Positions 52,567-57,775 of a stretch of 64,000 nucleotides of DNA are shown piece after piece. The first letter of the stretch is position 1. Each line of letters starts with the position of its first letter. Location: contig OZ223470.1 of the NCBI GenBank assembly GCA_965140795.1, forward strand, positions 2,115,579 through 2,179,578, in the 5' to 3' direction. The DNA comes from Sphaerochaetaceae bacterium (GTDB lineage: Bacteria > Spirochaetota > Spirochaetia > Sphaerochaetales > Sphaerochaetaceae). The translations under genes and the position numbers were made by a program. Below the pieces are notes generated by a model that had not been told where the DNA came from, did no database searches, and saw only the letters and a program-made list of their open reading frames with translations.

Positions 52567-52602
52567 TATTTATTAAAATTATTTATAAAATAACTTAAAA
52601 AA

Positions 52603-52648
52603 AAGTATTGTTCAATTAAATATTAATAGGACAATACTTTTTTCTTTT
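52603..52648. terminator. Terminator between convergent operons
   Basis: The stem AAGTATTGT/ACAATACTT is followed by TTTTCTTTT on the plus strand and preceded by an A-run. Confidence 0.6.
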
Positions 52649-52686: not shown

Positions 52687-53115
52687 TTATTGGTTTAAAG
52701 TATTTTCAATCATCTTATTTAATACATTATTAAATGTTTGTAGATCTTCTTCACTGATACCTGATATAGTATGGTTTTTGAAATTTTCGACAATTGGTAA
52801 AAGTTTTAAAAATTCTTTAGTTCCTTTATCTGTTAATTTAAGACATTTGATACGTTTATCATTATTATTGCCACTTCTATATAGAAATCCATCAAATTCC
52901 ATTTTTTGGAGCATTCTAGCCACTGTTGGTTCTCTAATAGCCATTTTATCAGCAAGTCCTTTTTGAGTAATGTCGTCACTGATGTGTATATAGTACATAG
53001 CTATCCATTGTGTTCTTGGGATACCATGAGAAGAGAGTTGTTCATCTAATGTTTTTGCAAAAACTTTTCCACTTCGACTTGTAATTAAAGCAAAACAATC
53101 ATCAAGATTAAACAT
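52687..53115 (-). CDS. MarR-family transcriptional regulator
   Basis: The 142-aa protein has a winged HTH (ITQKGLADKMAIREPTVARMLQKMEFDGFLYR...DKR). Confidence 0.85.
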   Translation of the reverse strand: MFNLDDCFALITSRSGKVFAKTLDEQLSSHGIPRTQWIAMYYIHISDDITQKGLADKMAIREPTVARMLQKMEFDGFLYRSGNNNDKRIKCLKLTDKGTKEFLKLLPIVENFKNHTISGISEEDLQTFNNVLNKMIENTLNQ

Positions 53116-53179
53116 AATTTTACCAACCTATTTTAATATTAAACTAATTATATAATATTTATATCTTTTTTTCTATGAT

Positions 53180-54112
53180 TTATTTTATATAGCTATTTTT
53201 TGAAAAATTATCAATATAATTAAATACTTTTTCCTCTTCAAATACTGAATCAATTAGTTGTTTTTCACATTGAGAGAAATCAAATAGGCTAAGGCTATCT
53301 GTTTGGATTTTTATTTGTTTTATTTTTCCATCAATAACATTAGTCGATACTGAAACGTTGCCAAAGGATAGTTTTTTCTCTACTGTTATATTGAATTCTG
53401 GAGCTTCACCATATATCCAATTATTTTTATTTATTTTATCAAAAAGTGGAGCGGTAAAACTATATCTATCAATATTAATTATAGGTTCAAAGTTCCCAAA
53501 TTCAGCTTTGAAGGACTTTATTGTTGCTTCTATGATATTTTTTGTATTTATAGAGCTATTAACTTGTGATAAGTTAATAACTCTACTTCTTACAGAATCA
53601 ATTCCTTTAGAATTTAGTTTTAGAAAAGAAGGGTTTAAAACTCTTGATAACATATCTAAATTTACACTAACCATGAGAGTTCCATGGTAGAGATAATTGT
53701 CATCGTTTGTATAATAGGCATGTCCAGAGAATTTTTTCCCTTCAACTAGTAAATCATTTCTTCCACTAAATTCGCAATTTATATCAAAAGAGGCTACAGC
53801 ATTTTTTATTACTGATAAATATTTTTGAGTGTCTGCATTTTTTTCTTTTGTTATAAAAGTGAAATTTACATTTCCTAAATCTTGAAAAACAGCTCCGCCG
53901 CCGGAAAATCTTCTTACAGGGGAGATTTTATTTTCATTTAAATATTCAGTATCAGTTTCAGCAAAAATGTTTTGATTTCTACCAAAAATTACAGCTGCTT
54001 TATTTTGCCATAAGAACAAACTTGTATTTTCATCTGCTTCTAATAATAGCTGATGTTCAGCTGCAACATTATAATAAGGATTATTTTCTTTTGATAAATA
54101 AATTTTATTCAT
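53180..54112 (-). CDS. lplA: Lipoate-protein ligase A
   Basis: RRFSGGGAVFQDLGNVNFTF and KFSGHAY are present. The start overlaps the upstream stop as TAATG. Confidence 0.85.
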   Translation of the reverse strand: MNKIYLSKENNPYYNVAAEHQLLLEADENTSLFLWQNKAAVIFGRNQNIFAETDTEYLNENKISPVRRFSGGGAVFQDLGNVNFTFITKEKNADTQKYLSVIKNAVASFDINCEFSGRNDLLVEGKKFSGHAYYTNDDNYLYHGTLMVSVNLDMLSRVLNPSFLKLNSKGIDSVRSRVINLSQVNSSINTKNIIEATIKSFKAEFGNFEPIINIDRYSFTAPLFDKINKNNWIYGEAPEFNITVEKKLSFGNVSVSTNVIDGKIKQIKIQTDSLSLFDFSQCEKQLIDSVFEEEKVFNYIDNFSKNSYIK

Positions 54113-55794
54113 TATTCGTGTAAGGTTCCTATTCCTAATCCAAATGCTGCTTCATGAATTACTTCTGAAGTAGTTGGATGGGCAAATATTGTTTCTCTGA
54201 TTTCTTCATCAGTTAACCCCTTATTAATAGCTAGTGTAATAGTACTAATAAGCGATGAAGCTTCAACACCGATAATAGATCCACCTAAAATCTTATTTGT
54301 TTTATTATCTTTAATTAGTTTAATAAAGCCTTTGGTTTCGTTCATGGTAATTGCTTTACCATTGTTCATAAAGTTGAACTTTCCAACTTTATAATCAATA
54401 TTTTTAGCTTTGCAATCATCTTCACTTAATCCAACACTTGCGATTTCTGGATTTGTAAAAATTACATTTGGAACAGCCGTATAATCCATTTCTTTAGGTT
54501 CATTAATTATTGAAGAAACTGCTGTTATTCCTTGATGAGAGGCTACATGAGCTAATTGTATAATGTTGGTTACGTCCCCGATTGCATAAATGTGATCAAT
54601 GTTTGTTTTCAAGTAATTATCAACAGCTATACCTTTCTTTTTTTCATTTAGTTTAATTCCGGCATTTTCAATTTGTAATCCATCTAAATTAGGTTCTCTT
54701 CCTATAGCACAGAGAACTTTTTCGCTAACAACTAGTTGCTCTCCATTTTCTCCATCAAAAGTTATAATAGCTTGGTTATCTGTTGAACTTTGTATTTTTT
54801 TCACTTTAGAACTTGTGAAAATATTTATTCCTTCAGCTTCTGCAATAGTTTTTATTTCTTGAGAAACTTCTTTATCTATCATGGTAAGCAGTCTATCCAT
54901 AAATTCTACTACATTAACTTCAACCCCTAAATTTCGATAAATGAAAGCAAATTCCATTCCAATAACACCACCACCAATAATAGTTATTGATTTAGGTAAT
55001 TTAGTAGAGGATAGGGCAGAAGTGCTGTTCATACAGAAAGGAAGCTCCATCCCAGGAATATTAATTTTAGATATTTTAGATCCTGTTGCAATTATAATAT
55101 CTTTAGCTGTTATTTCATAATTTATTTTACCTTTGAGGGATACTTTGTTTGCAGAAATAAAACTAGCTGAACCTTTAATTACTGAGATTTTATTTTTTTG
55201 CATTAAGTAATCAATTCCTGAAACAAGCTTATCAACAACTTGTTTTTTTTGTTCAATAACTTTTGGCATATCAATGTTTATTTGATTGTTTATATTGATT
55301 CCAAAAATAGCAGAATTTTTAACACAATGGCAAACTTCAGAAGATTTTACGAGAGCTTTTGTTGGTATGCACCCAACATTTAAACAAGTTCCTCCCATAT
55401 ATTCTTTTTCAACTATTGTTACTTTTAAGCCTTTTTTTGCAGCATAAATTGCAGCCACGTATCCACCAGGACCTGCTCCAATTATAAGTAATTCAGTTTC
55501 TAAAAGTTTAATCTCATTATCAAATTCTTCTTCATTAGCTTTAATAGCTAAATCAGATTGATTTTCAATAGGAGTAAATTCAAACATTGGTTGTTTTGAT
55601 TTTACTTCTTGACCTTCTTCACATAAGATTTTAGTAATAATCCCGCTTTCTAAGGCTTTAACAGGTTTATTTCCTTTTCCTGTTTCTACTTGTGCTAGTA
55701 TATCTCCCACTTTAACTTGATTGTTAAGTTTTGCGTTAATTTTACCAACTTTTCCAGGTTTCCCCCCAGGAATTATTGTCATATTTATAGTCAT
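54112..55794 (-). CDS. lpdA: Dihydrolipoyl dehydrogenase with fused N-terminal lipoyl-attachment domain
   Basis: The N-terminal ~75 aa form a lipoyl/biotinyl-type domain (VKVGDILAQVETGKGNKPVKA..GIITKI). This is followed by GAGPGGY, the redox disulfide GGTCLNVGCIPTK and the C-terminal HAHPT-like FAHPTTSE. Confidence 0.9.
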   Translation of the reverse strand: MTINMTIIPGGKPGKVGKINAKLNNQVKVGDILAQVETGKGNKPVKALESGIITKILCEEGQEVKSKQPMFEFTPIENQSDLAIKANEEEFDNEIKLLETELLIIGAGPGGYVAAIYAAKKGLKVTIVEKEYMGGTCLNVGCIPTKALVKSSEVCHCVKNSAIFGININNQINIDMPKVIEQKKQVVDKLVSGIDYLMQKNKISVIKGSASFISANKVSLKGKINYEITAKDIIIATGSKISKINIPGMELPFCMNSTSALSSTKLPKSITIIGGGVIGMEFAFIYRNLGVEVNVVEFMDRLLTMIDKEVSQEIKTIAEAEGINIFTSSKVKKIQSSTDNQAIITFDGENGEQLVVSEKVLCAIGREPNLDGLQIENAGIKLNEKKKGIAVDNYLKTNIDHIYAIGDVTNIIQLAHVASHQGITAVSSIINEPKEMDYTAVPNVIFTNPEIASVGLSEDDCKAKNIDYKVGKFNFMNNGKAITMNETKGFIKLIKDNKTNKILGGSIIGVEASSLISTITLAINKGLTDEEIRETIFAHPTTSEVIHEAAFGLGIGTLHE

Positions 55795-55856
55795 ATCTTT
55801 TCTCCAAATATGTAATGGGATTGCAATTAAAGCAATCCCATTATCTTTAGTATTAA

Positions 55857-56297
55857 TTAGTCTTTTATAACCCCTGATGAAACGAGTTTAACACCATTCA
55901 TTAAACAATCTCCTACTGGACATCTAGATTCAATGAATTTTGCAAAAGCTTCTGATTTTTCTTGGCTTTCACTTGTCTTGAAATGCATTTTGTAACGAAT
56001 TTCTTGGAACCCATTTCTTGCATCTGAAAGTCCCATAAACCCATCAGGATCTAAATCACCTTCAAGCTCAACATGGAAATCTTCAAAAGTAAAATCTTGA
56101 GATTCTGCAAATGCTGCAGCAACAATTGTTTGACATGCACCTAAAGCACAAAGTAAAGCTTCTACTGGATTCATTCCAGCATTTGTTCCACCTAGTTCTT
56201 CTGGTTCATCTAGTAAAATTTTGAAACCTCTTGTGCTTGTTTCAACCTGTAAGCCCTCTGCTAATTTTTTTGCTGTAGCTTTAAAAGTAGTTAACAT
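55857..56297 (-). CDS. OsmC/Ohr-family hydroperoxide reductase
   Basis: GTNAGMNPVEALLCALGACQ and the second Cys in SRCPV are present. Length is 146 aa, with a strong RBS (AGGAG). Confidence 0.85.
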   Translation of the reverse strand: MLTTFKATAKKLAEGLQVETSTRGFKILLDEPEELGGTNAGMNPVEALLCALGACQTIVAAAFAESQDFTFEDFHVELEGDLDPDGFMGLSDARNGFQEIRYKMHFKTSESQEKSEAFAKFIESRCPVGDCLMNGVKLVSSGVIKD

Positions 56298-56328
56298 AAA
56301 ATATATACTCCTATTTTAATTTTTTTTA

Positions 56329-56371
56329 AAATTACCATACACTATAGAACAAGTCAATACTTAGCTAAGTA
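56329..56371 (-). promoter_or_regulatory. Candidate promoter of the osmC operon with abutting 14-bp perfect palindrome
   Basis: On the minus strand the order is palindrome TACTTAGCTAAGTA (56371-56358), TTGACT (56357-56352), a 17-nt spacer, then TAATTT (56334-56329). Confidence 0.4.
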
Positions 56372-56659
56372 AGTATATGATTAATGTTATAGAAATTATT
56401 TATTATATGATTTTTAAAATATTATTGGTGCCAATAATAAAGAAATGGTAATATAAAGTTATAAAAAATAAAAAAATGACAATTTTTATTTAAATTGTTA
56501 TTTTAATAATGAGTGATTTGCCATCATGAAAATTATACTTTTCTAGAGTAAGAAATTTAGTATTGTTTTTAATATAAAGATGATAATGTTTCTGGTTTAA
56601 ATTTTTGATAATTTATCCTATTATTTTTATTAATTAGATTTAATAATAAAAGGGCTAAT

Positions 56660-57775
56660 ATGAAAAAATCACTTTCTAGAGATCAACAAATAATAAAAAC
56701 AAGTTTAGTTGGTATTTTTACAAATATATTTTTATCAGCATTTAAGTTGGTAATAGGGTTATTGTCCTCTTCAATTGCAATAATGATGGATGCAATTAAT
56801 AATTTAAGTGATGCATTATCTTCTGTTATAACAATAATCGGTATGAAGTTAGCTTTAAAACCAGCAGATAATAAACATCCTTTAGGACATGGTAGAATTG
56901 AATATCTAAGTGCTTTAATCGTATCTTCTATAGTATTTTTTGCAGGGGCTACATCACTAGTAGAATCTATTAAGAAAATTATTAATCCTGTAACTACAAA
57001 ATATACAACAATAATGTTGACTTTTATTTTTGTTGCTATAATTACTAAATTGATTTTAGGTCGATATACAAAAAATGTTGGTAAAAAAGTTAATTCAACA
57101 GCGCTTGTAGCTTCTGGATCCGATGCTTCTTTTGATGCAATAGTATCAGCTTCAACTATAATTTCTGCATTAATTACTATTTTCTGGCATATAAATATTG
57201 ATGGGTATATAGGAGCTGTAATCTCATTAGTTATTATCAAAGCTGGTTGGGATATGCTAAGTGAAACATTAGATAGAATTTTAGGGTCCAGAATTGATAG
57301 CAAACTTTCCAAAGAGATTAAAGCAAAAATTAAAGAAGAAGATATAATTATAGGAGTATATGATTTAATACTTCATAATTATGGACCTGAGACGATGATT
57401 GGTTCTGTTCATATCGAATTAGAAGAAAATGTTACGACTAAACAAATATATGAACTTACTAGAAAACTCAGAATGAAAATGTATGAAGAATATGGGATTC
57501 TTTTAACATTTGGAGTTTATGCCACAAATAAAAATGATCCTAGAGTTATTGAAATTATGGAATCAATTAATAAATATATTTTAAATATTCCTGGAATAAT
57601 TCAAATGCATGCTTTTTATATTAATTTTGAAGAAAAACAGCTTTCATTTGATATTGTTGTAGACTTTAATGTTGATGATAAATTTGCACTTAGAGATTCA
57701 ATAGCAAAACATTTAAAAGAAAAATATCCAGATTATTCAATTTTTATTGCTATTGATACCTTTATAACTGATTAA
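56660..57775 (+). CDS. Cation diffusion facilitator family transporter
   Basis: It has 6 TM segments carrying HPLGHGRIEY and DAxNNxSD-type motifs, plus a C-terminal cytoplasmic domain. Confidence 0.85.
   Translation: MKKSLSRDQQIIKTSLVGIFTNIFLSAFKLVIGLLSSSIAIMMDAINNLSDALSSVITIIGMKLALKPADNKHPLGHGRIEYLSALIVSSIVFFAGATSLVESIKKIINPVTTKYTTIMLTFIFVAIITKLILGRYTKNVGKKVNSTALVASGSDASFDAIVSASTIISALITIFWHINIDGYIGAVISLVIIKAGWDMLSETLDRILGSRIDSKLSKEIKAKIKEEDIIIGVYDLILHNYGPETMIGSVHIELEENVTTKQIYELTRKLRMKMYEEYGILLTFGVYATNKNDPRVIEIMESINKYILNIPGIIQMHAFYINFEEKQLSFDIVVDFNVDDKFALRDSIAKHLKEKYPDYSIFIAIDTFITD

Follow-up and report, generated by a model that had tools for sequence, protein, structure and literature searches.

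How can a bacterium that avoids oxygen and has no 2-oxoacid dehydrogenase acyltransferase (E2) supply electrons to an OsmC-type peroxidase? Peroxidases of the Ohr/OsmC superfamily are very efficient against lipid hydroperoxides, and to our knowledge their physiological reductant has been traced only to housekeeping lipoylated dehydrogenase subunits. We address this question with a locus of a Sphaerochaetaceae bacterium whose genome is a single contig of 3.09 Mb and about 28% G+C (assembly GCA_965140795.1, contig OZ223470.1). In the stretch of 64,000 nucleotides that was analysed, hereafter the window (contig positions 2115579-2179578), four genes follow one another head to tail on the minus strand: osmC, a gene for dihydrolipoyl dehydrogenase with a fused N-terminal lipoyl domain (lpd), the lipoate-protein ligase gene lplA, and marR. 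We consider it likely that osmC-lpd-lplA-marR is one autoregulated transcription unit encoding a complete NADH-dependent hydroperoxide reductase. This interpretation is supported because the gene association is widespread, no conventional complex is encoded elsewhere in the genome, the functional residues are conserved and a promoter palindrome co-varies with marR.

In the mechanism that we propose, LplA would lipoylate Lys40 of the N-terminal domain of the dihydrolipoyl dehydrogenase (Lpd) with scavenged lipoate. The Lpd core would take electrons from NADH through its FAD and the Cys137/Cys142 disulfide and then reduce its own tethered lipoyl arm, which is predicted to hang on a disordered linker of about 20 residues. 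The dihydrolipoyl arm would swing out and reduce the Cys55-Cys126 disulfide of the OsmC-type peroxidase, which would in turn reduce an organic hydroperoxide, or H2O2 or peroxynitrite, to the alcohol. MarR, bound to the palindrome that abuts the -35 hexamer, would repress the operon until its invariant Cys7 is oxidised, at which point the operon would be induced, and a hairpin between osmC and lpd would keep OsmC in excess over its reductase. We infer each electron-transfer step, the nature of the oxidant and the lipoylation of Lys40 by this LplA; the route as a whole, from NADH through Lpd and the fused lipoyl arm to OsmC and a hydroperoxide under a Cys-sensing MarR, is in our judgement the probable one. 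Judging from sequence, NADH-driven removal of organic peroxides in oxygen-avoiding bacteria is the most likely purpose of the module.

Conservation of the four-gene locus and its candidate operator

Open reading frames for all four co-directional genes were found on the minus strand (Table 1), as a preliminary description made from the DNA alone had listed them, and its family assignments were borne out by scores above the family cut-offs for OsmC (PF02566), lipoyl-fused Lpd (PF00364/TIGR01350), lipoate-protein ligase (TIGR00545) and MarR (PF01047). The nearest protein relatives bear the names Pleomorphochaeta or Sphaerochaetaceae. At the lpd-lplA junction the sequence is TAATG, in which stop and start have one base in common, again as described, and almost all related loci have an overlap of -1 or -4 nt there; the overlap points to translational coupling of the two genes.

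A scan of one genome per prokaryotic species located this OsmC subfamily in 223 genomes; the best 80 loci were fetched, and gene arrangements were counted in the 64 with at least 3.8 kb downstream of osmC. Lpd lies directly downstream of osmC in 47 of these 64, its lipoyl part undetected in one. The full order osmC-lipoylLpd-lplA-marR occurs at 31 loci, osmC-lipoylLpd-marR at 9 (Bacilli), osmC-lipoylLpd-lplA at 4, osmC-lipoylLpd at 2 and osmC-Lpd-marR, with no lipoyl part detected, at 1. The remainder have osmC-marR (2), osmC alone (14, among them Christensenella, Dichelobacter and some Paenibacillus) or an arrangement outside these categories (1); the five osmC-alone genomes examined all have an ordinary Lpd elsewhere. 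The module is found in Sphaerochaetaceae, Clostridia, Lachnospiraceae, Oscillospiraceae, Bacilli and Erysipelotrichaceae. Reverse look-ups anchored on Lpd (57-77% identity) had osmC immediately upstream in 6/6 cases, in Clostridium, Paenibacillus, Pleomorphochaeta, Granulicatella and two metagenomic contigs. The pairing of osmC with a lipoyl-Lpd, first noticed in this one strain, extends in this way to several phyla.

Clustering of flanking open reading frames from 57 loci revealed no further family in more than 7 loci, and hence no fifth gene. The four genes accordingly form a self-contained cassette in changing surroundings, and a fixed arsenic or sulfur context, or a fifth component, was rejected on the same count. 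Of 15 other genomes in the window's own genus, 9 have OsmC; none of the 21 other genera sampled from the family yielded it, and a 300-genome sample of the phylum yielded only distant matches (38-44% identity). This patchy occurrence, together with the 75-82% identity of Firmicute orthologues, indicates that the cassette is accessory and was probably acquired laterally in this lineage.

Individual loci vary in their neighbours. Granulicatella balaenopterae (locus L117, 958-8346) has two tandem osmC genes and an Lpd with two lipoyl domains, directly downstream of genes for ArsR, an ArsP permease, thioredoxin and a low-molecular-weight phosphatase of the arsenate-reductase type; locus L013 adjoins TusA and YeeE; and one Clostridium locus neighbours genes for a flavodiiron protein, a rubredoxin-containing protein and FMN reductases.

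Upstream of osmC we read, in order, the palindrome TACTTAGCTAAGTA (56371-56358), TTGACT, 17 nt, TGgTAATTT (56337-56329), GGAG and the ATG. The perfect 14-bp palindrome noted previously does stand directly next to the -35 hexamer (56357-56352). A consensus promoter scanner requires 4/6 matches, and the -10 hexamer here matches TATAAT at 3/6, so that the promoter went unlisted; other Sphaerochaetaceae loci have the same TTGAxx-N17-TGnTAxxxT layout. Across loci the operator follows the consensus TACTTAGCTAA[G/C]TA, always directly abutting a TTGAxx hexamer upstream of osmC, and it is present in 40/47 loci with marR versus 1/18 without, with 5 other matches in 817 kb of locus DNA. The palindrome TACTTAGCTAAGTA has one copy in the genome at up to one mismatch, where base composition predicts 0.04, so its regulon would be the operon itself; a search for other members of the MarR regulon ended at the same place, since the genome holds no second copy. 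As the last gene of the operon, marR is probably autoregulated, and MarR most likely represses rather than activates transcription.

Firmicute copies of the operon carry a second palindrome, some 33 nt past the MarR box and overlapping the -10 region: TGTTAxxxxxxTAACA in Clostridia, TGTTAxxxxxTTCACA in Bacilli. Counted from the osmC ATG, it lies, for example, at -56 in L102, -58 in L101, -62 to -64 in L072, L075 and L089, and -39 to -40 in the Bacilli loci L082 and L084. We take it to resemble lineage-specific operators of Rex, the NADH/NAD+ sensor. The window's own promoter does not contain this Firmicute-type palindrome.

The preliminary description saw a single Cys in MarR and likened the protein to one-Cys OhrR regulators. 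There are in fact two, C7 and C91, of which only C7 is conserved (42/42 orthologues), within an invariant N-terminal motif F-N-L-D-D-C7. The N-terminal Cys of that comparison therefore stands, whereas membership of the OhrR family does not: against the OhrR equivalog NF052638 the protein scores 36.3 bits, with a cut-off of 200. In a search of the PDB with the family profile, the nearest solved relatives are PA3341 and SlyA; OhrR (1z91) ranks 19th (E 7e-15), the redox-sensing proteins OhrR, SarZ, AbfR and MosR all being further down. Since Cys7 is offset by 1-4 residues from the sensing Cys of these four proteins in the profile alignments, its position is analogous, not demonstrably homologous, to that of an OhrR-type sensing Cys, which stands at the start of helix alpha1. 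We infer redox sensing by Cys7 and the direction of regulation, and this MarR probably represents a new subfamily that works like a one-Cys peroxide sensor.

The hairpin in the osmC-lpd spacer ends 17 nt before the lpd ATG, a position that leaves no room for a separate lpd promoter. Nearly all related loci have a strong hairpin at this place, its sequence differing by lineage and, in Firmicutes, often accompanied by a U-run, which points to a conserved device for OsmC excess; it probably acts in partial termination or stabilises the mRNA, with an OsmC:Lpd ratio above 1 as the result. The hairpin 3' of marR is common to the convergent aldolase gene, and its AT-rich stem was missed by the consensus scanner.

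Catalytic residues of OsmC and the lipoyl-fused Lpd

OsmC is a candidate thiol peroxidase of the Ohr/OsmC superfamily. Its PF02566 match spans residues 37-138, and its AlphaFold2 (AF2) model (pLDDT 87.2) aligns with 1lql at a Foldseek TM of 0.80. The model has 61 PDB matches at E<=0.001, the 50 best listed being OsmC/Ohr-type entries; the matches include Ohr bound to dihydrolipoamide (6ebg and 6ebd). Both catalytic Cys of the preliminary description were confirmed as a putative peroxidatic Cys55 (Cp) and resolving Cys126 (Cr), 71 residues apart and invariant in 77 orthologues, and two further Cys that it had not mentioned, C50 and C131, bring the total to four. Among 86 more distant family representatives (32-58% identity), C55 and C126 are each present in 81, E46, nine residues before Cp, in 75, R23 in 68 and C50 in 21; C131 is confined to the operon-linked clade and absent from all 85 more distant representatives. 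This clade consequently shows a CX4C...CX4C pattern, in which C50 precedes the peroxidatic Cys by five residues and C131 follows the resolving one by five; C50/C131 may serve as a further redox pair or bind a metal.

The hallmark of Ohr/OsmC proteins is a catalytic Cys pair about 60 residues apart together with a Glu and an Arg (PMC5384416). OsmC has the Cys pair and the Glu, and its Arg is at an unusual place. The best NCBIfam match is NF041052, 'OsmC-related (seleno)protein' (61.6 bits, cut-off 95), and the only other at E<=0.001 is TIGR03563 (32.7 bits, cut-off 166); OsmC belongs to a poorly characterised third, 'Ohr-like' group outside the biochemically characterised Ohr and OsmC subfamilies. 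One laboratory obtained activity with L and H proteins from a member of this third group, TvOsmC of Trichomonas vaginalis, according to the summary in PMC5384416.

Lpd matches Biotin_lipoyl (PF00364) at residues 16-72 (cut-off 22.1 bits) and the TIGR01350 equivalog (cut-off 408.8 bits). The AF2 model has a pLDDT of 85; its lipoyl domain is all-beta (pLDDT 84-91), and strands 32-38 and 41-46 are joined by a turn that holds K40. This acceptor Lys lies within E-T-G-K-G-N, and the clade motif E-T-[G/A/S]-K-G-N-[R/K] is kept with or without a co-encoded lplA; K40 and E37 are present in 51/51 sequences, G41 in 50/51 and N42 in 47/51. We assume that K40 carries a lipoyl rather than a biotinyl group because of the linkage to lplA. 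The linker at about residues 76-100 is not conserved in sequence and is, according to the model, a flexible tether between lipoyl domain and flavoprotein. In the core, the redox disulfide motif is C137-L-N-V-G-C142 (CLNxGC across orthologues) and the C-terminal dyad lies in H539-P-T-T-x-E544; among 48 orthologues C137, H539, E544 and E297 are invariant and C142 nearly so (at least 90%). An acidic residue at the end of the NAD-fold strand, here E297, is typical of the NADH-using enzymes of this flavoprotein family. The PDB relatives of Lpd are Lpd enzymes (the E3 of dehydrogenase complexes; E 1e-100), including Neisseria P64k (1ojt, 1bhy, 5u25), and variants of 640-670 residues found by protein search carry two lipoyl domains.

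Several observations weigh against a MarR-repressed peroxidase that depends on the fused lipoyl arm. OsmC has two extra invariant Cys, C50 and C131, to which the proposed chain gives no role. The conserved R23 sits in the beta2-beta3 turn of the model, unlike the loops that hold the catalytic Arg in Ohr and OsmC (PMC5384416), and the beta1-beta2 and beta3-alpha1 loops carry no Arg. Neither canonical family, TIGR03562 (OsmC) or TIGR03561 (Ohr), is among the NCBIfam matches at E<=0.001, and TvOsmC was inactive with free dithiols in another laboratory (PMC5384416). The GKG context of the lipoyl Lys departs from the canonical (E/V)-(S/T)-D-K-A, the 14/64 loci with OsmC and no nearby Lpd show that the pairing is not obligatory, and the centre of the palindrome, at about -42.5 from the inferred start, is where an activator could bind as well.

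The same relay from NADH through Lpd and the lipoyl arm to the OsmC-like protein might instead end on something other than a hydroperoxide, candidates being a disulfide or persulfide, hypohalous-acid damage, a quinone, a metalloid adduct or onward transfer to a protein encoded elsewhere. We regard this as unlikely, while giving it some weight: it would suit the position of OsmC outside the characterised subfamilies, the clade-only C131 and the rarity of C50 in distant relatives, the displaced Arg, the disputed activity of TvOsmC and the arsenic or sulfur genes beside some loci (ArsR, ArsP, thioredoxin and LMWPc at L117; TusA and YeeE at L013). Yet OsmC shares with peroxidases the conserved Cp/Cr pair and Glu46, the fold matches Ohr/OsmC, and no arsenic or sulfur gene recurs in the flanks, where the commonest family reaches 7/57 loci. 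A Cys-bearing MarR, moreover, is the usual partner of organic-peroxide genes, and the flavodiiron protein, rubredoxin-containing protein and FMN reductases of the Clostridium locus are oxygen-defence neighbours. Reduction of a hydroperoxide is thus the end reaction that we prefer.

Lipoyl-dependent systems elsewhere in the genome

As described previously, no gene for E1, E2 or glycine cleavage (GCV) adjoins the operon. A genome-wide search for E2, E1, GcvH, LipA, LplA, Lpd and lipoyl domains extended the survey to components of the pyruvate dehydrogenase (PDH), 2-oxoglutarate dehydrogenase (OGDH) and GCV systems: it returned no lipoyl-E2, an orphan fused E1 and a self-supplied GCV operon about 160 kb away. 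The sole match to the E2 catalytic domain PF00198 is weak (30.7 bits) and covers the last 90 model positions in a 306-residue protein without a lipoyl domain (contig 178905-179825, beside a HAD hydrolase). The same weak match occurs in two other Sphaerochaetaceae genomes, and PF00198 is otherwise absent from five other operon-bearing genomes. As an E2 partner the 306-residue protein was rejected on account of the partial catalytic domain, the lack of a lipoyl domain and the hydrolase neighbour.

The GCV operon is complete (gcvT-gcvH-gcvPA-gcvPB, contig 2336586-2342997) and is directly followed, in the same direction, by an lplA of its own (321 residues) and then by a 429-residue Lpd-like flavoprotein (392 bits, just under the TIGR01350 cut-off). 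A third Lpd paralogue (466 residues, 438 bits, contig 2368875-2370275) has an unusual context for an Lpd: on one side a BcrAD/BadFG-type ATPase, which is preceded by an HgdD-like dehydratase component, and on the other a radical-SAM protein that begins with a zinc ribbon. The three Lpd paralogues of the genome are only 35% identical to each other; cross-phylum orthologues of the operon Lpd share 57-77%. The orphan E1 is an alpha/beta fusion of 660 residues on the minus strand (contig 799153-801136) with E1_dh (267 bits), Transket_pyr and Transketolase_C domains; its neighbours are pheST and phosphoglucomutase, with no E2 or E3 beside it. It is conserved in two other Sphaerochaetaceae genomes (98% and 75% identity) and absent from three of the five other operon-bearing genomes, those of Clostridium, Lacrimispora and Oscillospiraceae.

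The operon LplA combines a catalytic domain (PF21948, 184 bits) with a C-terminal accessory domain (PF10437, 49 bits), has the conserved KFSG motif and is 38% identical to the GCV-linked LplA. A profile search found no LipA in the genome and only two catalytic domains of the LplA/LipB type, from which it follows that the organism relies on lipoate salvage with one ligase per acceptor. Biotinyl/lipoyl-type domains number four: two in a 701-residue open reading frame, one in a 163-residue BCCP-like open reading frame and one on the operon Lpd.

These findings bear on whether the lipoyl-Lpd could be a metabolic E3 with a built-in arm, serving the orphan fused E1 or glycine cleavage, its adjacency to osmC reflecting only a shared use of reduced lipoate. 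We think this quite improbable. An E1 fusion with no E2 or E3 beside it would want a partner, and lipoyl-fused E3s of conventional complexes are known, Neisseria P64k among them; there is, however, no acyltransferase E2 core to complete the cycle, the fused E1 lies 1.37 Mb away and occurs only in the two Sphaerochaetaceae among the carriers tested, GCV has ligase and flavoprotein in its own operon, and at 47 loci Lpd shares synteny with osmC and marR, at none with E1 or E2. Its absence from three of five carrier genomes leaves the fused E1 unsupported as a general partner, and a role as E3 of a conventional complex was rejected because no lipoyl-E2 is encoded here or in five other carrier genomes and GCV has its own lplA and Lpd-like gene. 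The independence from dehydrogenase complexes that was proposed at the outset is supported on the same grounds. Still less probable is a role of the lipoyl domain chiefly as sacrificial antioxidant or lipoate store, recycled by Lpd while OsmC works independently: a dedicated ligase and lipoyl carrier in an oxidative-stress operon would parallel the GcvH-L/LplA2/SirTM system of Staphylococcus aureus, in which GcvH-L with LplA2 was proposed to play such a part (PMC12440151), but no SirTM or macrodomain genes are present at this operon, the only other lipoyl acceptor of the genome is GcvH with its own ligase, and the tight linkage and co-inheritance of osmC and lpd argue for direct coupling.

Relation to known systems and significance

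The principle of a lipoyl-recycled Ohr/OsmC is already established. The lipoyl domains of P64k-type E3s carry the canonical DKA motif. These Neisseria proteins share the architecture found here, an N-terminal lipoyl domain, a flexible linker and an Lpd core; they serve PDH and OGDH complexes, whereas the present clade is linked to osmC and has the motif E-T-x-K-G-N.

Protein-bound lipoyl groups are, as PMC5384416 reports in citing Cussiol 2010, the biological reductants of Ohr/OsmC and are kept reduced by Lpd. In Xylella fastidiosa, a two-Cys Ohr with a MarR-type regulator is recycled by protein-bound dihydrolipoyl groups that NADH and Lpd reduce, much as we propose here (Cussiol et al. 2010, as summarised in PMC5384416). 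Its donors, in that summary, are a housekeeping E2 and an Lpd encoded elsewhere, whereas here the carrier is fused to a dedicated Lpd and the ligase gene is predicted to be co-transcribed; unlike the setting of X. fastidiosa Ohr, the host genomes here have no 2-oxoacid dehydrogenase E2, and OsmC falls in neither canonical subfamily. Similar in outline is the hydrogenosomal OsmC of T. vaginalis, which works with L and H proteins (Nyvltova 2016, as cited in PMC5384416 and bioRxiv 10.64898/2026.10.01.755906): in these secondary accounts Lpd, a lipoylated carrier and a non-canonical OsmC make up an NADH peroxidase without dehydrogenase function in an anaerobe, a combination that we propose here as well. 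Its L and H proteins come from an incomplete glycine decarboxylase complex, the carrier being free H protein rather than an Lpd fusion, and the genes are eukaryotic, dispersed and, as far as those accounts go, lack a ligase or regulator of their own; with free dithiols the activity could not be repeated (PMC5384416).

The Lpd-DlaT-AhpD-AhpC relay of Mycobacterium tuberculosis likewise passes electrons from NADH through Lpd and a lipoyl protein to a peroxidase in antioxidant defence (Bryk et al. 2002, as described in PMC12440151). By that description it uses a pyruvate dehydrogenase E2, the AhpD adaptor and a peroxiredoxin, four proteins of which two are metabolic, in contrast to two dedicated proteins with an OsmC-fold peroxidase here. 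The GcvH-L/LplA2/SirTM operon of S. aureus and Streptococcus is an oxidative-stress operon that resembles ours in that a private lipoyl carrier comes with a dedicated LplA paralogue (Rack 2015, PMC4518038; Acosta 2025, PMC12440151); it differs in lacking Lpd and OsmC, in being regulated by ADP-ribosylation and in a GcvH-like carrier that is not fused to a reductase. In Hyphomicrobium denitrificans a lipoyl carrier gene stands beside osmC and is the proposed electron donor (bioRxiv 10.64898/2026.10.01.755906). That pair has only been proposed, in an aerobe with complete dehydrogenase complexes, and its carrier is free-standing and GcvH-like, with no fused Lpd, co-encoded LplA or MarR (same source). 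A full-text literature search, with most subscription journals outside its coverage, found no paper on the present operon.

What is new is the way in which five features come together. The Lpd is a dedicated one and bears the lipoyl carrier as a domain; a private ligase is probably coupled to it in translation; OsmC forms a clade of its own with two additional Cys; MarR and its candidate operator are a distinct pair; and the host genomes examined have no E2. If the reading is right, the module gives an OsmC-type enzyme its own genetically linked electron donor and explains the presence of Lpd, LplA and lipoate salvage in strict anaerobes without 2-oxoacid dehydrogenase. It would also make the docking of a lipoyl arm on OsmC accessible in a compact system of two proteins, and the MarR subfamily with its N-terminal FNLDDC and operator TACTTAGCTAA[G/C]TA abutting the -35 forms a new, directly testable regulatory pair. 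The module is spread among gut Lachnospiraceae and Oscillospiraceae, Paenibacillus and Sphaerochaetaceae. More tentatively, lipoate may be kept purely as an antioxidant cofactor in bacteria without 2-oxoacid dehydrogenase, with the self-armed reductase as the obligate and specific donor of OsmC, C50/C131 as a second relay tuned to protein-bound lipoyl groups, and the four-gene cassette moving between phyla with its own Cys-sensing MarR; this would amount to a two-protein NADH peroxidase of a new type.

Table 1 Features of the osmC-lpd-lplA-marR locus in window coordinates
Feature	Position	Strand	Evidence
osmC	56297-55857	minus	146 residues; PF02566, 76.5 bits (cut-off 27.5)
lpd with N-terminal lipoyl domain	55794-54112	minus	560 residues; Biotin_lipoyl and TIGR01350 matches
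lplA	54112-53180	minus	310 residues; TIGR00545, 306.5 bits (cut-off 280)
marR	53115-52687	minus	142 residues; PF01047, 49.2 bits (cut-off 24.6)
Candidate MarR operator, perfect palindrome TACTTAGCTAAGTA	56358-56371		directly abuts -35 hexamer
Putative sigma-70 promoter	56357-56329	minus	TTGACT, 17-nt spacer, extended -10 TGgTAATTT
Stem-loop in osmC-lpd spacer	55812-55844	minus	12-bp stem, -20.4 kcal/mol, z -6.2
Lipoyl-attachment domain of Lpd, residues 1-75	55570-55794	minus	PF00364, 33.9 bits; acceptor Lys40
Flexible Lpd linker (predicted), about residues 76-100	55495-55569	minus	AF2 pLDDT 28 at residues 78-92
Dihydrolipoyl dehydrogenase core	54112-55494	minus	TIGR01350, 539.9 bits; C137/C142, E297, H539/E544
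Terminator-like hairpin and U-run 3' of marR	52595-52645	minus	-14.7 kcal/mol, z -5.6

A second perfect inverted repeat, ATTATTGG-CA-CCAATAAT, lies at window positions 56421-56438 in the divergent intergenic region between osmC and a cation-efflux (CDF) gene (56660-57775). A palindrome screen did not find it at the locus of the closest relative, and it may belong to the CDF gene.

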